Below, one piece after another: positions 1 through 41,741 of a stretch of DNA of 64,000 nt. The notes below the pieces were generated by a model. It was not told the DNA's origin. It made no database searches and worked only from the letters and a program-made list of their open reading frames with translations. The position numbers and the translations under genes are program-made. The stretch comes from Octopus vulgaris. Its lineage: Eukaryota. The stretch lies in assembly GCA_951406725.2 (NCBI GenBank), contig OX597816.1, positions 8,246,001-8,310,000 on the forward strand, read 5' to 3'. Position 1 is the first letter of the stretch. Each line of letters begins with the position of its first letter.

Positions 1-270
1 AAGTATAATGATACCGGTGCAATGTGTATACAATATATAATGATAAGAGGACAGCAATACTCTTCAGAGAAAATATCAATGAAACCATTTATCTCCTGTC
101 TTTTACTGTTTACGTGTTTCAGTTGTTACAATGTGGCCATGCTGTGGCACCGCTATGAAGAATCTTTAGTCGAATGACACGACCTCAGTACTTTTCATTA
201 AGCCTGGTACTTACTCTATCGGTTCCTTTTCACGAACAGCTAGGTGGTAGAGACTTAAACAAACAGAAAC

Positions 271-317
<47 letters not shown>

Positions 318-333
318 GTTAAAGATATATATG

Positions 334-381
<48 letters not shown>

Positions 382-857
382 GACGGGCTTCTTTCAGTTT
401 CCGTCTACCAAATCCACTCACAAGGCTTTGGTTGGCCAAGGCTATAGTAGAAGATTCTACTATATATAATATGAGCTTCTTTCAGTTTCTGTCCGCCAAA
501 TCCACTCACAAGTCTTTGGTTGCCTTGAAACTATAGAAGAAGGCGATTGCTCAAAGTCCAACGCAATGGAACTGAACCCAAAACGATGTGGTTAGGAAAC
601 AAACACCTTGCCACACAGTCGCGCCTGAGCTTTTATTATGAAATTATCTCATAAAACGAATTGCTAACTTCATTCTCCTTGTTAATGTTTGTATAAACTC
701 TACTACATTTACGGATTTTCAGACACATCATCAGTAAAACTCCCCATTTCCGTTTTATACTTGTATCTGATAGCCGTGGACGGGCTTAATAAAGCAAATA
801 CCAAGGTCAAAACCAAATGGAATTTATTTATTTGTGTATGTAAATAAATAAAATATA

Positions 858-1018
858 GGCGCAGGAGTGACTGTGTGGTAAGTAGCTTGCTAACCAACCA
901 CATGGCTCCGGGTTCAGTCCCACTGCTGGCATCTTGGGCAAGTGTTTTCTGCTATAGCCCCGGGCCGACCAATGCCTTGTAAGTGGATTTGGTAGACGGA
1001 AACTGAAAGAAGCCTGTC

Positions 1019-1068
<50 letters not shown>

Positions 1069-1069
1069 T

Positions 1070-1101
<32 letters not shown>

Positions 1102-1313
1102 AGTTTGTGTGTCTGTGTTTGTCCCTCTAGCATTGCTTGACAACCGGTGCTGGTGTGTTTACGTCCCCGTCACTTAGCGGTTCGGCAAAGGAGACCGATA
1201 GAATAAGTACTGGGCTTACAAAGAATAAGTCCCGGGGTCGATTTGCTCGACCAAAGGCTGTGCTCCAGCATGGCCGCAGTCAAATGACTGAAACAAGTAT
1301 AAAAGTATAAGAG
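858..1313 (+). mobile_element. tRNA-derived SINE family A (full copy)
   Basis: Box A-like TGGCTGTGTGG (here TGACTGTGTGG) and box B-like GGTTCAGTCCC head, internal (TA)/(TG) microsatellite, 3' tail ...CCAGCATGGCCGCAGTCAAATGACTGAAACAAGTA. Further copies at ~100-626(-), 1790-2092(+), 17593-17890(+), 19225-19450(-), 27165-27570(-), 50212-50648(-), 61940-62148(+). Confidence 0.9.
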
Positions 1314-1336
1314 TGAAATATATATATATATATATA

Positions 1337-1779
1337 TAGTGGTCGTATACTGTCAACTCAATGTGACAGTCCCGTAAGGGAATTACACCACCGCCATTTA
1401 ACCCTAGGAAACATCGACGTCTCCTGTCGGCTTTGACACATTTTCCGTGTCCTTATATTTGCAAAGGGGAGGCAAGCAATCACCCCGCCAGCTGGGACTA
1501 AGCACCTGAAGACATATGTTTCTGAGTCTATTGCTCGTCGTCAGTTCAGGGTAGCCTGCCTCGCTCGCTGAGATGACCGCAACCTCTTCGCAAATATATC
1601 ATATTTTCAGTAAAATTTATTTACTGATCACCGAAATTAGAAATATTGAATTTCTAAATGTCTTAGAGAGACATGAGCGGTGGTGGAGCGATATAGTGGT
1701 CGTATACTGTCAACTCAATGTGACAGTCCCGTAAAGGAATTACACCACCGCCATTTAGCCCTAGGAAACATCGATGTCT
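1337..1779 (-). mobile_element. HHR-bearing ~357-bp tandem-unit repeat (retrozyme/Penelope pLTR-like), family R1
   Basis: 1337-1420 is repeated directly at 1694-1777 (period 357). It contains a hammerhead at 1505-1550(-) and starts at a (TA)n tract. Confidence 0.75.
1505..1550 (-). ncRNA. Type I hammerhead ribozyme motif
   Basis: Minus strand: CCUGAA-CUGACGA-cGAG caauaga CUCa-GAA-ACAUAUGU-C-UUCAGG. It has a 6-bp stem I, an intact core, a palindromic short stem III and a GUC cleavage triplet. Confidence 0.85.
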
Positions 1780-2107
1780 TCTACCATAGTGTCTTCTGCC
1801 ATAGCCTCGGGCCGACTAAAGCCTTGTGAGTGGATTTGGTAGACGGAAACTGAAAGAAGGCCGTCGTGTATATGTATATATATGTATGTGTGTGTGTGTA
1901 TGTTTGTGTGTCTGTGTTTGTCCCCCCAAGATTACTTGACAACCGATGCTGGTGTGTTTAGGTTCCTGTAACTTAGTGGTTCGACCGATAGAGTAAGTAC
2001 TAGGCTTACAAAGAATAAGTCTTGGAGTCGATTTGCTTGACTAAAGGCGGTGCTCCAGCATGGCCACAGTCAAATGACTGAAACAAGTAAAATAGTATAC
2101 ATACATA

Positions 2108-4249
2108 CATAGCTGGGCGTAAGTCCGTTAATCCGTTAATTGTTAATTAACGAAGTCAACATTTTCGTTAACGATTTAACTTTTAAGTTAACTTTGAAAA
2201 TCATTATCGGACTAATTAACTTCAGTTACATTTATCTTCCGTTAACTCAAGTCCGTTAACCCAAACATTTCATAAAAACCGGTAAAAGTTTCTGTTTTCG
2301 GATTGTCTTATTTAATATTGTACGCGTCATTCTTTCAATCTCAATATAACGCCATTTATTATTATAAATAACTTGTTGGACCTCTTATGGCCCTGTCTGG
2401 ATATGAAACCAAATCCACCCAGCTTGTTGCTTGCAAAGACAGCGGGAAATTTGTTTGTTCTGTCAAGAAAGAAAAATTAATTGATGTGTTTTCGTTTGAT
2501 CCATGACATCGCTGAGGTGGATGTCAACAGAGAAAATATTGACTTCCATAAAGTGGAAAAAATAAATGGAAGGAATAAAGTCGGTGTGAACGCAAATAGC
2601 TGATGGGAGGTGGGAGCAGGGCATGCTAGAAATAGCAGCCAAATCTTTACTTTTCTGAGAGAAAAAAAAGGAGCCGTTTATGCGTGATTTCAATGTCACA
2701 TTCGTTGAAATCATGCAAAATAATCTGGAAAAGAAAAAAAGACCCACGTAACAAAACTTCCTTGGTGGGAAACTTCGAGGTCCCCACCTTCCCTCACACC
2801 TTTCTTTTTCCGGGAAAAAGTGGCTTGCAGCGGGTTTGGAGGCCAGATACGTTGAATGCACCTGAAAAAAAAATGTGGAAAAAATTATTCCACACCGAGG
2901 TACGAAATATTTACCGAAAGAATAAAATCTTGCACCGATTATACCTGTATTTTTTATCAATTCAAATTAATGTACCTCATCTTGGAAAGTGGAAAATTTT
3001 TTATCCGATGTGATCTGGGATAATTTTAGTAACAAATCAAACAGGTAGTATGCATTAAGAATTTCAATTTTAGTGTTTATCCATAAATATTATTCCTTTT
3101 ACACCTGTTAATTAAATTTACCTGCCCATAAAAGTCAAATTTATTCAGCAAGATCAGCTAAAATTACATAACTATAAACTAGTGATATATAAAGCAACCA
3201 CTGACAAACTTCAAATCTGTATGTAAAAAATTTACAAAGTTACAAGCAAATATTGTAGACACTTCTCTTGAACCTGAATAATTCAAAATAACGTGAACAA
3301 ATAAGCATTACATTTTAAAGATTAATTTGAACACTAAAAATGTTTTTATGTGTTTTTTTCTTACACACACGGTTGGGACTACATGTGTGTTACTTTGACA
3401 TCATCATTCCATAAGATTTGTTTATAGGGAAAAAAATATTGAAAAATATCAATAGGTTTTGGAATGTGCCAGGAACAGCCAGATCTCCCTTAAATCATAC
3501 ATTTTCCTCTGAAATTATTGACAATTTTTTTAAAACCAATAATGTTTCTCTCACGGGTTTTAAGTGAGTAGTGAAAAAAAATGACCAAAATCGTTTCGGA
3601 CTGGGGTAGTGAAGGGGTGGCGAGAGTGAAAAAATTTTTTTTTTATTTTTTCTTTCTTTTTTTCATGAAAAGATGCCTGTCATCATTCTGGAGACTTTGG
3701 CGAAGAACACTGGGAAAATCCCCGTCAAACAGAGAAATTCCAACTTCTGTGGGCCGTCTGATCCGAAACTCCGTTTTCTAGAAACTCCTCCCCGCCCCTT
3801 CCAAAAATGTTGCCAACAAATTTCTTTATAATCGTAATTTGAAAGGTATTTGTATAAAATTTCATTAAAAAATGCCTATTTTCCAGAAAGTTATAAGGAG
3901 GAAAATGTTGGGTCCTGTGAATTTTCCGAAAATCTTCTCCCCAAACCCTCGGAAATTTTTTTTTCCAACAAATCTTTACGTACTTTCAATCTACAGGATA
4001 TAAGCGATTATTTGGTGAAAGTTTTGTTAAAAAGTATCCATTTTTCTGGAAGTTATGAGACAACAGAGTCGGTGGGGTATAAAACTGTAGATAGGCCTTC
4101 TTTCAATAAAAGTTAACGTTAACGGATTACCGTTAACTTCCGTTAGATTTTCAAAGAATTAACGGATTAACGATTAACGAAGTTAATTTATTGGTTAACG
4201 GATTGACGATTAATGAAGTTAACTTTTCGATTAACGCTGCCCACCTCTG
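2108..4249. mobile_element. Non-autonomous/degenerate DNA transposon, probably hAT-type
   Basis: Imperfect termini CATAGCTGGGC...GCCCACCTCTG, with dense subterminal GTTAAC/CGTTAA motifs at both ends (2110-2260, 4110-4240). No clear TSD. Confidence 0.6.
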
Positions 4250-4447
4250 ATGTATCTAAAATTTAATTGCCAACATAACATGGCTGTCGTGTAAGGGACG
4301 TTGTTACTGTTTATTAGACCCAAGAAACATCGTTTCTCGCTGGCTATACGACATATCTGTGTCATATAAATACATATGTTTGTGTGTGTGTGTGTGTGTG
4401 TGCGTGTGTGTGTGTGTGTGTATCTATGTATATATATGTATATATAT

Positions 4448-4562
4448 TACATGCAGTTAAATATATGTCCGGCCATAGAGTGATCAATGGTTTTGCATCC
4501 GCACTTTATGGATGCGAAACCATTGGTCACTCTATGACCGGACATACATTTAACTGCATGTA
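4448..4562. repeat. Near-perfect palindrome (MITE-like foldback)
   Basis: TACATGCAGTTAAATATATGTCCGGCCATAGAGTGATCAATGGTTTTGCATCC pairs with its reverse complement across a ~9-nt loop; TA at both ends. Confidence 0.8.
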
Positions 4563-4678
4563 AATACATTACTGCTCTCTCCTTAAGAGTGTGCTTCTAA
4601 CGATATGTACATACATACATACATACATACATACATACATACATACATACATACATACATACATACATAATATATATA

Positions 4679-4739
<61 letters not shown>

Positions 4740-4907
4740 AGCAGGATCAGCCATCTGAATGTGGCTAGGGACAGGGCGGGGTGGTGGGGGTGTTACTGAT
4801 GCATTTAGCCCCAGGCGACTATCGACGTCACCAGAAGAGCCGACACCATCACGGTGTCCTTGCTAGCCTGCAAAGGGAGATCAGCCTCACCGAAGATACG
4901 GATGCTA

Positions 4908-4950
4908 CACACGGACCGGTTTCGAGGTATTTGCCTCTTGTCAGCGCATG
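4908..4950 (-). ncRNA. Type I hammerhead motif with G8->A change
   Basis: Reverse complement of the motif at 5225-5267. Confidence 0.7.
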
Positions 4951-5224
4951 GCAAGCACCGTTCTTCGCTGAGGGACTTCCTGTACAGGCCAGATATATAT
5001 AGATTTTCACAGTAACCACAGTCACTGGCGTAGAAAATCCGTTCGATAACAATAATAAATCTCTGAGCGAGGTATAAACAGTAACTGCTCTATAATATAA
5101 GCGGGATCAGCCATCTGAATGTGGCTAGTCGAACGGATTTTCTACGCCAGTGACTGTGGTTACTGTGAAAATCTATATATATCTGGCCTGTACAGGAAGT
5201 CCCTCAGCGAAGAACGGTGCTTGC

Positions 5225-5267
5225 CATGCGCTGACAAGAGGCAAATACCTCGAAACCGGTCCGTGTG
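5225..5267 (+). ncRNA. Type I hammerhead motif with G8->A change
   Basis: CAUGCG-CUGACAA-GAGG caaaua CCUC-GAA-ACCGGU-C-CGUGUG. The core is CUGACAA rather than CUGACGA (CpG-type transition); palindromic ACCGGU; GUC site. Confidence 0.7.
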
Positions 5268-5485
5268 TAGCATCCGTATCTTCGGTGAGGCTGATCTCCC
5301 TTTGCAGGCTAGCAAGGACACCGTGATGGTGTCGGCTCTTCTGGTGACGTCGATAGTCGCCTGGGGCTAAATGCATCAGTAACACCCCCCACCACCCCGC
5401 CCTGTCCCTAGCCACATTCAGATGGCTGATCCCGCTTATATTATAGAGCAGTTACTGTTTATACCTCGCTCAGAGATTTATTATT

Positions 5486-5555
<70 letters not shown>

Positions 5556-5584
5556 TAATTTAGATGACAATTTATTCACCGCAC

Positions 5585-5618
<34 letters not shown>

Positions 5619-5622
<4 letters not shown>

Positions 5623-6456
5623 GTGCTGTGAATAAATTATCATCTAAATTACGCAAAAATGAAAATAACACTGACATCTCATTTTAACAGATATATTTAC
5701 CAAAATTACTTTTAAATATTTTGAAATACTAAAGAGTAAATTTATTCAATAAAATCGCCATTGGCTTCAACCACGGCCTCCAGACGACTTCGGAATCTGC
5801 TACAACTCTTCTTGGCGGTCTCCTTGTTGGTGAATGCTGCCATAATCCATGTCTTCAGTTCATTTTTGGTGTCGCAAGGAGTTTTGTTGTTCTCTCGCTC
5901 AACTACGCCCCACACATAATAATCAATGGGGTTGCAGTCTGGGGAGTTAGGTGGCCAGACGTTAGGGGTGATGTGGTCACAAATTGTCTGACAGCCATGA
6001 CTGGGTTCTTCTGCTGTTGTGGAATGGTGCAGAGTCTTGTTGCCAAAGGGTTTTCCAGCAGCCACCCTTTTGACCCAGGACAACAATAACCCTTTCAGGC
6101 ACTCGATGTAGGCCTCCGTGTTGAGTCTTAGGCCGTATGGGAAGATGAATGGAGACATAAAGTTGCTATCACTAATGATCACTCCAAACACCATGATGTT
6201 GACTGGTCGTTTGATTTTTATTACTCTTGGTGCATGTTTTGTGGACTCAGATTCGTATTGGAGCTCCCGGTGGGGATGCCAAGCATTACAGCATGTCGAT
6301 TCCAAATTTGTTGCAGAGTGAATTGTGTCATGGTGCTGTTTTTCTCACAGACGGTGCCCAACTGACCCTGCTATACTACGTATTCGACAGAATCAAAAGC
6401 AAACAATGCGCGAAATTAAAAATATAATATGGCGACAATTTACCCATCGCACCCTG
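5619..6456 (-). mobile_element. Internally deleted Tc1/mariner (maT/DD37D-like) transposon
   Basis: ORF 5742-6305 has IMVFGVI...WPPNSPDCNPIDYYVWG...RLEAVVEANGDFIE. Imperfect TIRs CAGAGTGCTGTGAATAAATT / CAGGGTGCGATGGGTAAATT, flanked by TA. Confidence 0.88.
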
Positions 6457-6640
6457 TATGTGTCGACCTCGGCGGAATTTGAACTTAGAGCGTAGCGGCA
6501 GACGAACTACTGCTTAGCATTTCGCCCGGCGTGCTAACCGTTCTGCCAGTTCGCCGCCTTACACACTTCTTTATCTGCTCTATTTATATACATACATCCA
6601 TCCATACATACATACATACATACATACATACATACATTCA

Positions 6641-6676
<36 letters not shown>

Positions 6677-6925
6677 CATATGTTTAAATTCCATCGAGGT
6701 TGACTTTGCCTTTCATCCTTTCGGGGTCGATAAATTAAGTACAAGTTACGTACTGGGGTCGATCTAATCGACTGGTCCCATCGCCCCAAATTTCGGGGTT
6801 AGTGCCTATAGTAAAAAGATAAAGAAGTGTGTGTGTGTAGACATATACACATACAGGGTGCGATGGGTAAATTGTCGCCATATTATATTTTTAATTTATA
6901 CATACATACATACATACATACACAT

Positions 6926-7058
<133 letters not shown>

Positions 7059-7707
7059 TACATATATATTTGTATGTACATGTATATGTATGAAAGTGTA
7101 TGTATATGGTATCACCTGATTATACAGTCACGCAACGTCAATTGTGATACGTTCCAATTAATAGCCAGTGGTTAATCTGATTCGAAATCTGCACCAATAA
7201 TGTGGTCGATGTTTCAATATGTCAGCTGCTGACGGCGAATACAAAATATTGAAGTTATGTGATACGAAGCGACAGCGGCGGCGGCGGTGGCGGCAGCGGA
7301 AGCAAACGAGAAGCAAACGAGACTTCGAAAACGAACGACAACGTTAGTGTGAGGGAGGAAGGGGAGGAAGGGGAGAGAGAGTAGGTCTTGCAGCAGGCAG
7401 CGATAGCCTGGCACAAAATGGCTGCTGAAACATAATTTGAGCTTAGAACATAAAGACGCCGGTCGAAATAGCGCTTATTTCGTTCTGAGTGCTAACTCTT
7501 CTGTCAGCTCACCATTCAATTTTCAGATACCCCCAATCAAATTATTTTAGACGAATAAAAACCAAATCTTTTCCTTCATCTCCCCAACAGTTTATCGTTT
7601 GTTGAGGTTTCTCAATGTAATCGTGCGTTATTTATTTATTTATTTATACTAACATTGAAATTCAATTCCCTTGTTAAAAGTAACCCTATCATTAATACAA
7701 TAAATAT

Positions 7708-7924
7708 ATAAATGCGCCCTTTTAAAGCCTAGCCAGGTTCATGGGCCCGGTTTCCCGGTTTCAATGGCGTATGTGTTCCGCAGCGTTACTCATTTTTGCC
7801 AGCTGAGTGGACTGGAGCGACGTGAAATGCTCAAGAACACAACGCGTCGCCTAGTCCAGGAATCGAAACCACAATCTTACGATCATGATGCTGACACTCT
7901 AACCACTAAGCCACGCGCCTCCAC
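7708..7924 (-). mobile_element. tRNA-derived SINE family D
   Basis: Minus: GTGGAGGCGCGTGGCTTAGTGG (box A)...GGTTTCGATTCC (box B)...CTCCAGTCCACTCAGCTG...tail GAAACCGGGAAACCGGGCCCATG. The 3' half also occurs at 27570-27686(+). Confidence 0.8.
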
Positions 7925-8029
7925 CTGCCATTAATATACTTTACTTTTATTTCTTTTAGCATTTTTTAATTCTTAATTTACTTAATCTGAATTAACTTTC
8001 ATCGTATTCTGCCCTTCAATACTTTGGAT

Positions 8030-27066: not shown

Positions 27067-27702
27067 TATATATTTACACATACACACACGCATAAACGCA
27101 TACGTACCTTCATATACACAGATATGTTAAACGCGCGCGCGCGCACACACACACACACAGAGACCTGTTCCAGTCATTTAACTGCGGTCATGATAGGGGT
27201 ACCACCTTGATCGGATTTTAAGCGAACAAATTGACCCCAAGGCCTATATTTTTACGCCTACTACTTATTCTATCGGTTTCTGTCGAACCGCTAAATTAAG
27301 GGGACATAAGCACACCAACACCGCTTGTCAAGCGGTGGTGTGGGTGGAGGACAAAAACAGACAGAAACACAAATACACACATACACACACAGAAGCACAC
27401 ACACACACACATATATACACGACGAGCTTTCAGTTTCCGTCTACCAAATCTAAATTTCAAGGCTTTGGTCGGGCTGAGGATATATTAGAAGACACTTGCC
27501 CAAGGTTCCGCACAGAGGGACTGAACCTAGAACCATGTGACTGAAAAGCAAACTTCTTACTACACATCCACAAAAATGAGTAACACTGCGATGGACTGGC
27601 GTCCCGTCCAACTGGGGAACACATACGCCATTGAAACCGGGAAACCGGGCCCATGAGCCTGGCTAGGCTTTAAAAAGGGCGCATTTATTTGTTTATTTTA
27701 TA

Positions 27703-28100
27703 CTAGCAGTATCGCCCGGCGTTGCTCGGGTTTGTAAGGGAAATAACTATATAAGCATTTTTAGAGATGTAAAGTATAATAGCTATCTCAATATGGCTAA
27801 CCACAAAGGGGGGGGGGGTTACTGTAGCTTTTTACGTTCTGAGATTTAATAATAAATTTTTATAGAGTTACTTCCCTTATATATGCCAAAAATGCATTAA
27901 AAATGGGAAAAATTGATGGTAATTTCTTTTTTTAATCGTAGACTCATCGTAGACGCGCGCTAATACCCAGAAGGGCTCGATATGAATCACGACTTTAAGA
28001 TACCCGGTTTTGGTTAAACTGCACCGCAAAATGTGGGAGTAGTTAGGAATCTAAATCGTAGGAGACAGACAGCACACAACCTCTCTTTTATATATAAAGA
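27703..28100 (-). mobile_element. Non-autonomous Helitron
   Basis: Minus: A|TCTTTATATATAAAA...CCCGAGCAACGCCGGG hairpin-CGATACTG-CTAG|T. Confidence 0.82.
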
Positions 28101-33284: not shown

Positions 33285-33353
<69 letters not shown>

Positions 33354-33724
33354 TGGATGGATATGGATGGATGGATAGATAGATAGATAGCTGGGTAGGT
33401 AGGTAGGTAGGTAATACAAACAAACAAGCACTCAAATACATAAACACACAAAGAGACGAAACACATGACCATGGTAACACACATACTCTACACACGCGCA
33501 TATTCACAAAGCCACATATGGAGACACACATCCATATACATATAACAAGCGCAAGTACATAATCACACAAACTCATATACATAGACACACTCAAACACGC
33601 ACACGCAAGGAAGCAGAGGTACACACGCGAATACACACGCTCACACATACATACACAATCTTTTTGCACGTTTAATGTCCCTTTCTTCCAACTATTTCCT
33701 CAATCTTGATATTTACTCTTTTAC

Positions 33725-33939
33725 TCTTTCTCTTTACTCTTTTACTTGTTTCAGTCATTTGACTGCGGCCATGCTGGAGCACCGCCTTTAGTTGAGCAAA
33801 TCGACCCCGGAACTTATTCTTTTGTAAGCCCAGTACTTATTCTATCGGTCTCTTTTTGCCGAACCGCTAAGTGACGGGGACGTAAACACACCAGCATCGG
33901 TTGTCAAGCAATGCTAGGGGGACAAACACAGACACACAA

Positions 33940-33970
<31 letters not shown>

Positions 33971-34141
33971 CATATATACGACAGGCTTCTTTCAGTTTCC
34001 GTCTACCAAATCCACTCACAAGGCATTGGTCAGCCCGAGGCTATAGTAGAAGACACTTGCCCAAGATGCCACGCCGTGAGACTGAACCCAGAACCATGTG
34101 GTTGGTTAGCAAGCTACTTACCACACAGCCACTCCTGCGCC
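33725..34141 (-). mobile_element. SINE family A (duplicate 38741-39157); another at 35446-36232 (duplicate 40462-41184)
   Basis: Family A sequence. Confidence 0.9.
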
Positions 34142-36465
<2,324 letters not shown>

Positions 36466-38298: not shown

Positions 38299-38367
<69 letters not shown>

Positions 38368-38955
38368 TGGATGGATATGGATGGATGGATAGATAGATAG
38401 ATAGCTGGGTAGGTAGGTAGGTAGGTAATACAAACAAACAAGCACTCAAATACATAAACACACAAAGAGACGAAACACATGACCATGGTAACACACATAC
38501 TCTACACACACGCATACACACAAAACCACATATGGAGACACACATCCATATATATATATAACAAGTGCAAGTATATAATCACACAAACTCATATACATAG
38601 ACACACTCAAACACGCACGCGCAAGGAAGCAGAGGTACACACGCGAATACACACGCTCACACATACATACACAATCTTTTTGCACGTTTAATGTCCCTTT
38701 CTTCCAACTATTTCCTCAATCTTGATATTTACTCTTTTACTCTTTCTCTTTACTCTTTTACTTGTTTCAGTCATTTGACTGCGGCCATGCTGGAGCACCG
38801 CCTTTAGTTGAGCAAATCGACCCCGGAACTTATTCTTTTGTAAGCCCAGTACTTATTCTATCGGTCTCTTTTTGCCGAACCGCTAAGTGACGGGGACGTA
38901 AACACACCAGCATCGGTTGTCAAGCAATGCTAGGGGGACAAACACAGACACACAA

Positions 38956-38986
<31 letters not shown>

Positions 38987-40700
38987 CATATATACGACAG
39001 GCTTCTTTCAGTTTCCGTCTACCAAATCCACTCACAAGGCATTGGTCAGCCCGAGGCTATAGTAGAAGACACTTGCCCAAGATGCCACGCCGTGAGACTG
39101 AACCCAGAACCATGTGGTTGGTTAGCAAGCTACTTACCACACAGCCACTCCTGCGCCTATATCCCTGTCATCCTTTTCCTTTCTCTGCTTCTTTTCCCTT
39201 CAAACTTTCCGATCATCGCTAAATTCTCCAGGACCTCTTTCTTCGTTAAATGACCTAGAAATCTCAGTTAATTGGCCCTTATCTCACGAAGCAGTTTCCT
39301 ATTTACCACAGTTCCGGGTATTCAATCCTTCCTTAGACACTTTGTCCGTGCTATACTCAATATCCTCCTTAAAACCCACACTTCACAGCTCTCCAAGCAT
39401 CTTCTCATTCCTGGTCTTATAGACCATGCCTCACTTCCATACACTAACACAGGCTTAATATACGAATCCTGATCTTGATACTCAGAATACCGTTTCTCAA
39501 GATGTGATACACTTTAGAGAATGCAGATTTTGCCAGCACTATTCATCTTTTAATCTCCTTCACACATCTTGTATATTCTGTGTTCAAAGTTCCAAGGCGA
39601 GCTGGCAGAAACGTTAGCACGCCGGGCGAAATGCTTAGCGGTATTTCGTCTGCGTTACGTTGTGAGTTCAAATTCCGCCAAGGTTGACTTTGCCTTTCAT
39701 CCTTTCGGGGTCGATAAATTAAGTACCAGTTACGCACTGGGGTCGATGTAATCGACTTAATACCTATGTCTGTCCTTGTTTGTCCCCTCTGTGTTTAGCC
39801 CCTTGTGGGTAATAAAGAAATAGGTATTTCGTCTGCTGCTACGTTCTGAGTTCAAATTCCGCCGAGGTCGACTTTGCCTTTTATCCTTTCGGGGTCGATT
39901 AAATAAGTAGCAGTTATGCACTGGGGTCGATGTAATCGATTTAATCCGTTTGTCTGTCCTTGTTTGTCCCTTCTGTGTTTAGACCCTTGTGGGTAGTAAA
40001 GAAATAGGTAGTTGAAGGATTATAGCTGTTTAATGATTTGATTGTTCACTTCCAGCAAACACTTTGGGCTTCCCTTTTTTGTCACCATCATACACTTGCA
40101 ATTTATGAACAGACCCTTCCTCTCACTTTCTCTGACCACTACATCCAGAAGTCTTTGAAGTTCTCTTTCCGATTCTGCAAATAAGATTGTCATCTTGTGT
40201 TTGCGATGTTTCTGAGGTGATAAAAGCGTTAGAAGAATATGAAATTAGAATAAGATCTATGATGATGGGAAATTTCCAAAAGATCTGGGTAGATCCATCT
40301 TTATTGCACTCCCGAAGAATTCAGGATCAGTGAACCGTGGACAACATCGCACGATTAGCATCAAGGGTCACGCTTCAAAGATCATTCTGAAAGAGCAAGG
40401 AGCAGAATAACATTTGAGATTGGAATTGGGACAGTTTGGATTTGAAAAGGGTTCCGGTGCCCTTTTACTTGTTTCAGTCATTTGACTGCGGTCATGCTAG
40501 AGCACCACTTTTAGTCGAGCAAATCGACCCCGGGACTTATTCTTTTTGTAAGCCCAGTACTTATTCTATCGGTCTCTTTTTGTCGAACCGCTAAGTTACA
40601 GGGGCGTAAACACACCAGCATCGGTTGTCAAGCGATGTTGGGGGGACAAACACAGACACACAAACATATACACACACGTATATACATACATATATATGTG

Positions 40701-40763
<63 letters not shown>

Positions 40764-40787
40764 TATATATATATATATGTATGTATA

Positions 40788-41009
<222 letters not shown>

Positions 41010-41741
41010 TATACATATATACAACGGGCTTCTTTTAGTTTCCGCCTACCAAATCCACTCACAAGGCTTTGGTCGGCCAGAGGCTGTAGTAGAAGACACT
41101 TGCCCAAGGTGCCACGCAGTGGGAATGAACCTAGAACTATGTGGTTCGTAAGCAAGCTACTCACCACAAAACCTCTCCTACGCCTACGGTACTGGGAATA
41201 TTATTTTTGTATTGAGAATGATAATAGAGAGGGCAGTGGAGATACAAAAAGATGTCTTCGTATGTTTCATAGATTACACAAAAGCCTTCGACAAAGTAAG
41301 ACATGACGTGTTATTTGAAGAACTCCGTTACATTGATCTGCATGGGAAAGACCTCCGAGTCTTGCAGAGCCTGTACTGGAACCAATCGGCGTGCATAAAG
41401 ATGGAGGGAGAGTACATAGATCTCTTCAATTATGAATTGATCATAAGAAACTAAAATGCAAGAGCTCTCAGAGAGCGCAAACCGCCGCCAACGCAACACC
41501 AATGTCCTCTCAACGATTAACCGGAGATGATTTTTAAAATGAGAATATCTGAAAAAAGGATCCTTCAATGAATATCCTGAGACCTTTTGATTTTTCTCTT
41601 CTCTTAAATTCCGGTCTTCCTTTAGCAATATTGTTGTTTTAGATTGATGTATAGAACTATGTATATATGTAAGTATACTGTAAAGTGTTAAAATGTATGT
41701 ATAATCTCCTGATATTATAATGAGCATTGCCTTTTTATATA

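Follow-up and report, generated by a model that had tools for sequence, protein, structure and literature searches.

A window of 64,000 nt of the Octopus vulgaris genome (contig OX597816.1, positions 8,246,001 to 8,310,000; coordinates below are those of the window unless a locus is named) carries copies of three families of short tandem repeats, R1, R2 and R3. They belong to a superfamily of at least seven families, with units of 343–364 nt that are 47–77% identical, and all seven family consensuses contain a predicted type I hammerhead ribozyme core with its three stems. These repeats are probably non-autonomous retrozymes that were copied into the genome by the reverse transcriptase (RT)-endonuclease of a Penelope-like element (PLE), which is our candidate enzyme. 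A predicted fold that covaries across families, and insertions that end at two fixed sites, point to this reading.

Hammerhead repeats of the window and their superfamily

The consensuses of the seven families (R1, R2, R3, R4, R5, R6 and R9) are colinear over the whole unit; R4, R5, R6 and R9, as well as partial others, were found by profile runs on loci fetched from the genome (2.8 Gb, 227 contigs). Repeat scans confirmed the periods proposed for the two main families of the window, 357 nt for R1 (1334–1425 recurs at 1691–1782) and 360 nt for R2 (4731–4768 recurs at 5091–5128). R1 and R2 had been said to have little overall identity, and they are indeed 48–49% identical, yet colinear; their local alignment score of 58 was equalled in none of 500 shuffles (21.6 ± 2.9). 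The motifs listed for them in the original prediction are present where it placed them. Among these, TCGCTGAG, TCACC and the GUCGAU loop are common to R1 and the R2 of the window and are not shared by all seven families, and comparison of the seven ruled out TCGCTGAG and TCACC as superfamily-wide motifs.

The predicted hammerhead of R1 is antisense, as had been proposed; R2, however, is not a simple tandem, which the original prediction missed. The R2 insertion at 4731–5487, flanked on both sides by (TA)n, consists of two head-to-head inverted arms (4786–5046 and 5129–5389 are 100% complementary), and the two copies of its hammerhead therefore face opposite ways, minus in the left arm and plus in the right. 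A third fragment, at 4262–4365, had been thought to show the same motifs; this is correct for the 3′ module and incorrect for the hammerhead, which is absent there. It is weak on its own (score 35.5 against R1, where the shuffle maximum is 37) and is a truncated copy of the third full family, R3, with a period of 350. The copies and their parts are as follows (A and B are the two sites at which insertions end, and P0 and P6 are predicted elements of the fold described below):

1334–1779, minus strand: R1 insertion, ~1.25 units of 357 nt; its 3′ end (site A) meets (TA)n at ~1337
1350–1452, minus: R1 3′ structured domain (predicted fold)
1458–1594, minus: R1 long imperfect rod (extended helix I) around the hammerhead
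1505–1550, minus: R1 predicted type I hammerhead, core CUGACGA...GAAAC (CUGACGA at 1538–1544), short palindromic helix III, site GUC
1636–1693, minus: R1 tail, from site A to site B; it includes the tail hairpin and the strand that pairs in P0
4262–4365, minus: R3 copy (unit 350 nt), truncated at the 5′ side to the 3′ structured domain and lacking the hammerhead
4669–4734: (TA)n target flank, left of the R2 insertion
4731–5128, minus: R2 left arm, 1.1 units of 360 nt, terminating at site A
4908–4950, minus: R2 predicted type I hammerhead of the left arm, core CUGACAA (C3-A8 mismatch) at 4938–4944
5129–5487, plus: R2 right arm, 1.0 unit, inverted relative to the left arm, terminating at site B
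5185–5310, plus: R2 rod around the hammerhead, right arm
5225–5267, plus: R2 predicted type I hammerhead of the right arm, core CUGACAA at 5231–5237
5316–5427, plus: R2 3′ structured domain (GACAC hairpin to P6)
5442–5487, plus: R2 tail, site A to site B, terminal on the right arm only
5488–5550: (TA)n target flank, right of the R2 insertion

The 5′-truncated end of the R1 insertion adjoins, at ~1780, a repeat that we take to be SINE-like (a short interspersed element).

Members of the superfamily are numerous in the genome. First-look searches gave 2632 candidates for R2, 2335 for R1, 584 for R3, 2221 for R4 and 3252 for R6, totals that are not copy numbers, 40 being scored per family. A strict R2 ribozyme pattern has only 135 matches and a 22–26-letter superfamily pattern has 957 (reversed control 0). 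A profile scan of 600 kb of evenly spaced, unselected DNA found seven places (reversed control 0), five of them insertions and two of them fragments within another repeat, which extrapolates to ~20,000 insertions genome-wide, with a wide margin. Young copies (91–100% identity) are dispersed over many contigs and arrays of several units occur, some arms having at least five near-identical units. An exact pattern scan of metagenome contigs gave no matches.

Two further repeats touch on the superfamily. A 491-nt hammerhead family (L213:1180–1790), with an inverted arm and a (TA)n flank, has no match to the profile of the ~355-nt superfamily and so appears to be a second, unrelated retrozyme lineage. 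A high-copy repeat with what we presume to be a Helitron-like start carries a piece of the superfamily 3′ module and a tail-like motif (window 27700–27880; L245:1679–1734; L261:3094–3142; L008:912–965), and it may be the reason why contigs cover the corresponding parts of R2 so deeply.

Predicted fold and covariation

Folded separately, the seven family consensuses give one predicted architecture. From 5′ to 3′ on the ribozyme strand it runs through a tail hairpin, an upstream hairpin and a long imperfect rod around the hammerhead, then a GACAC/GUGUC hairpin, a two-tier hairpin closed by AGCC/GGCU, a small hairpin and P6, a hairpin with an 8-nt loop. The strand 5′ of the last two hairpins is predicted to pair with the tail, forming helix P0 and thereby enclosing one insertion end; R2 and R5 differ from the other families in this region. 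The 3′ domain of the R1 copy in the window holds the GACAC/GUGUC hairpin, the two-tier hairpin (closed by GGGCU), one P0 strand, the small hairpin and the final P6 with its 8-nt loop. The hammerhead strand is predicted to be more stable than its complement (about −123 vs −107 kcal/mol), and the folding z-scores are −5.1 and −6.8.

The pairs of this fold covary. In a sequence-only alignment of three disjoint family pairs, 58 of 84 double-sided changes still pair, compared with 36.1 expected from the observed substitution matrix, an excess reached in 0 of 20,000 simulations; taken in the R1-to-R2 direction, 22 of 32 do so (p 0.004). Among 14 genomic copies, 39 of 63 pairs are changed on both sides (24.7 ± 2.8 when shuffled, 12–19 when slid). 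Double-sided changes occur in all six pairs of helix I; outside the ribozyme and rod, the pairs changed on both sides in the genomic copies number 3/5 in P0 and then 3/6, 2/6, 1/5, 5/6, 1/2 and 3/5. The proposal that the ~360-nt hammerhead units form one structured family, with an architecture that covaries, is supported by these changes and by the likeness of the folds. The fraction of predicted pairs common to the families is 0.36, 0.52, 0.45 and 0.81 in four family pairs, where mutating the same columns at random, in 20 runs per family pair, left only 0.07, 0.20, 0.06 and 0.23 shared. With a plain MAFFT alignment as input, RNAalifold found no more than 31 pairs and folded the ribozyme incorrectly.

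It is extremely unlikely that the repeats are plain satellite DNA whose fold arose by chance, or by common descent without selection on RNA structure. Relatedness of the copies and derivation of the structure from the data inflate the covariation counts, but a sharing of 0.36–0.81 against 0.06–0.23 under random mutation speaks for the fold itself, and a satellite does not account for dispersed two-armed insertions with fixed ends.

In the predicted hammerheads, positions 3 and 8 form a C-G pair in R1, R4, R6, R9 and most of R2 (R2 majority core CUGACGA) and a U-A pair in R5 (2/2); in R1, R6 and R9, helix II has a C-A mismatch at its base.

Insertion ends, the candidate enzyme and neighbouring repeats

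Copies are 5′-truncated on the ribozyme strand and terminate at two sites. Site A lies mostly 12–19 nt 3′ of P6, and site B lies 58–64 nt 3′ of P6 in R2, R6 and R9 and 70–78 nt in R1, R4 and R5; the end positions of R3 are more scattered. From P6 to the end of the tail motif the distance is 54 nt in six of the seven families and 52 nt in R5. R2 insertions are two-armed at 33 of 47 loci, and all 30 that could be classified have one A end and one B end, as does the insertion in the window (A at left, B at right). For all families together the figure is 63 of 68 classifiable insertions, with 17 more unclassified, a count in which related families may be represented twice. Most R2 termini meet (TA)n, and R1 termini do so less often. 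Partial tandems, an inverted 5′-truncated copy, a one-sided tail and a bias to (TA)n are the pattern of PLEs (passages of PMC8557442), and the A and B footprint matches the two internal start sites that the parts of PMC11167929 on in vitro insertion give for a PLE enzyme. The link to retrozymes and PLEs made in the original prediction is thus supported, by the hammerhead units and by this footprint.

Units of R2 diverge by 1.1% within an insertion and by 3.7% between insertions, and at four R2 loci a variant unique among the 47 is present on both arms, which fits a single template. Insertion lengths of 1.1–1.2 units had been taken to fit reverse transcription of a circle; they are compatible with one and do not require it, and they follow from a pair of fixed start sites of the PLE type combined with inversion or with truncation at the 5′ end.

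We propose the following cycle. Tandem copies would be transcribed on the hammerhead strand, and the hammerhead would release monomers whose two new ends the rod would keep together for closure into a circle by a host ligase. A PLE protein would then bind the conserved 3′ domain and cut both strands of a (TA)n target. One DNA end would prime at site A, 12–19 nt 3′ of P6, and the other at site B, about 40–60 nt further; here the footprint is seen in the insertions and the enzyme is the conjectural part. The two cDNAs (complementary DNAs), a fraction of a unit to several units long, would finally join head-to-head, as the footprint again records. The fold would thus have a dual role, as a clamp around the ribozyme and as a ruler that sets the two start sites. 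A bolder version, to which we give distinctly less credence, is that a long-lived superfamily of retrozyme RNAs keeps one whole-unit fold for both purposes: the rod clamp for circle closure, and a 3′ multi-helix ruler which, like the boundary element of telomerase RNA, might make the PLE pair start both target strands at two set distances on one RNA, although this RNA and the termini of the enzyme's own element have no sequence in common.

Neither an RT nor a GIY-YIG frame lies inside the units or is joined to them as their own body. One PLE of the same genome, which we take to be Neptune-type on the basis of its motifs and PMC8557442, is represented by 4688 candidates, and many of its copies are identical. 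It has an intact-looking RT and GIY-YIG in a frame of 1312 residues (no Pfam match to this frame), a hammerhead on the sense strand, (TA)n flanks and two 3′ ends. Against all 15 units, its 3′ end gave scores inside the range of shuffled sequences. Copies of R5 are found inside or beside 3 of 37 loci of this PLE, which indicates overlap in time and target only. Young copies (L116:3442–7377; L087–L122) have a long asparagine-rich insert in the frame and a hammerhead core that is mostly CUGAUGC rather than CUGAUGA. A seeming peptide likeness between a related tail and the N-terminus of the Neptune-type PLE led to the non-coding family R9 and was discarded.

Several observations weigh against PLE-mobilised retrozymes with a common fold. 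The R2-to-R1 direction taken alone is not significant (14/26 double-sided changes pair, p 0.16), one-sided changes leave pairing intact no more often than chance would (38 of 119, against 34.8 expected), and the predicted 3′ fold of R2 deviates, with 22–36% of pairs in common. The count of double-sided changes over the 14 genomic copies is supporting and not independent, since those very sequences yielded the structure and are related to one another. An Rfam scan of positions 1–8000 (E ≤ 5) gave 74 matches, none to a hammerhead or another relevant family, so the prediction of a ribozyme depends on the core motifs and on stems that covary. In R3, 14 of 16 copies have U-G at positions 3 and 8, and a young R2 subfamily, which includes the copy in the window, has C3-A8, yet is found at 11 loci on seven contigs. 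Four insertions have two A ends and one has two B ends. Two R2 arrays (L193 and L199) have unit variants that recur every two or three units, respectively, which one monomeric circle is not enough to explain; a multimeric template, later duplication and conversion are each possible. Finally, the superfamily profile had no match at three sampled PLE termini, and the 3′ terminus of a fourth PLE family lay beyond the fetched flanks.

That PLE sample comprised four families, three from protein queries of the genome and one met in random DNA (a second Neptune-type copy); the family whose terminus lay outside the flanks is one that we presume to be Hydra-like. A shared terminus with PLEs, which had been raised as a possibility, was thus not found at three termini, and the units do not appear to be simply the termini of the four sampled families. 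They might instead be orphan pseudo-long terminal repeats (pseudo-LTRs) of autonomous PLE families outside the sample, the fold being the terminal RNA of the parent. The small size of the sample, with one terminus out of reach, leaves room for this, and passages of bioRxiv 10.64898/2026.07.22.740005 give matches to known repeats, PLE termini in most cases, for 24 of 57 retrozyme families of Xenopus. We nevertheless regard it as unlikely: colinearity of the seven families spans the entire unit and takes in the stretch 3′ of site B, in which a PLE would be passing into its reading frame, and in the fetched loci no superfamily match ran into a PLE frame as its terminus.

A stronger competitor, though still a doubtful one, is that a PLE mobilises the units from linear tandem transcripts, with the hammerhead a dispensable passenger and no circular template. 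The C3-A8 subfamily bears on it directly. It accounts for 19 of the 100 matches listed among the 135 pattern matches (counted by hand), with up to three units in one arm. Breaking the 3-8 pair of a PLE ribozyme, by other substitutions, abolished cleavage and left insertion by the PLE protein in vitro unaffected (passages of PMC11167929), so by analogy the C3-A8 mismatch likely impairs cleavage; the spread of the subfamily suggests that cleavage may be dispensable. In addition, P0 and the 3′ hairpins can form locally in linear tandem RNA, and the periodic variants of L193 and L199 fit such a template. On the other side, the rod and core (C3-G8 in five families, a compensated U3-A8 in R5) have been kept at 47–77% identity, some arms hold at least five near-identical units, and circles have been demonstrated for a mussel retrozyme of like size (in the portions of PMC7229834 on circular RNA).

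Mobilisation by a long interspersed nuclear element (LINE; L1/Tx1-like) instead of a PLE is very improbable. L1/Tx1-like sequences do meet R4 at one fixed point at six loci, but it is the LINE's own 3′ end that adjoins R4, and at two loci the other R4 half lies on the far side, which indicates that the LINE inserted into R4; two fixed ends, one per arm, are moreover a PLE trait.

At all six loci checked, which were picked for this feature (L042:2664, L334:2011, L335:5395, L336:5194, L337:5628 and L338:5097), R4 is met at a single point, to within about 2 nt, by an AATAAA-type 3′ end, and at least three different sequences contribute such ends. The point lies in the rod around the ribozyme, on its 5′ strand. 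Upstream there are L1/Tx1-like frames at four loci (zf-CCHC, zf-RVT), and the far R4 half is present at L334 and L336. The junctions suggest a site-specific LINE with a retrozyme as its target; a literature search on Tx1 and retrozymes found nothing.

The window also holds other repeats. A fragment at 5560–6430 (minus) with a 200-residue frame encodes what we take to be a Tc1/mariner-like transposase, and a palindromic element lies at 5560–5647. A 2.1-kb element at 2110–4250, between related GTTAAC-rich repeats, is probably a DNA transposon, and 4445–4564 is a 120-nt near-perfect palindrome resembling a miniature inverted-repeat transposable element. The same microsatellite series and 184-nt dimer are found at 33285–36069 and 38299–41021, ~5 kb apart, as a local duplication or an assembly artefact.

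Comparison with known systems

The suggestion that this is an undescribed system does not stand, because tandem type I hammerhead repeats of 350–390 bp are already described in a mollusc (passages of PMC7229834) and animal retrozymes have been proposed to be PLE derivatives (passages of bioRxiv 10.64898/2026.07.22.740005). The octopus units appear to work like a PLE-mobilised non-LTR retrozyme, a likeness that is real and well supported, the sequence-level features of that class being present. A literature search that covered few subscription papers found nothing on cephalopod retrozymes or on a retrozyme fold shared among families.

The metazoan non-LTR retrozymes of mussel (Cervera and de la Pena 2020, PMC7229834) are likewise non-coding ~350-bp tandem units in a mollusc host, with one type I hammerhead per unit and a high degree of self-pairing. 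Circles and cleavage, which are proposed for the octopus units, are demonstrated there. The passages of that paper covered here call its sequences species-specific and mention neither a fold common to several families nor inverted arms or fixed ends. Li, Clavereau and Pollet 2026 (bioRxiv 10.64898/2026.07.22.740005) likewise propose mobilisation by PLEs, together with an origin from pseudo-LTRs. In its relevant passages their case is built on co-occurrence and sequence similarity in vertebrates, and ours is built on the insertion footprint; unlike their proposal, no parent pseudo-LTR was found among the PLE termini sampled.

With endonuclease-positive (EN+) PLEs the units have much in common, as portions of four papers (PMC8557442; PMC11167929; PMC3846280; PMC4209133) indicate: partial tandems, an inverted 5′-truncated copy, a tail at one end, two start sites, a (TA)n bias, and a sense-strand hammerhead with a short palindromic helix III and a U3-A8 variant. 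They differ in having no RT or GIY-YIG frame, in a tail of 43–60 nt rather than the 30–40 nt given for EN+ PLEs in those portions, and in UA-rich start sites that could pair with the target, where the anole PLE is described as starting at non-homologous sites.

The seven diverged families amount to a natural mutagenesis series, which names particular helices and the 54-nt spacing and predicts the two start sites. They bear on how retrozymes re-insert into animal genomes, which has so far been proposed, and on which RNA feature a PLE enzyme recognises, and the spread of the C3-A8 subfamily bears directly on whether ribozyme cleavage and circles are needed. Relative to the known systems, what is added here is a fold that covaries over the whole unit in seven families, its fixed spacing to the two start sites, and a subfamily that has been mobile although its core is mismatched.

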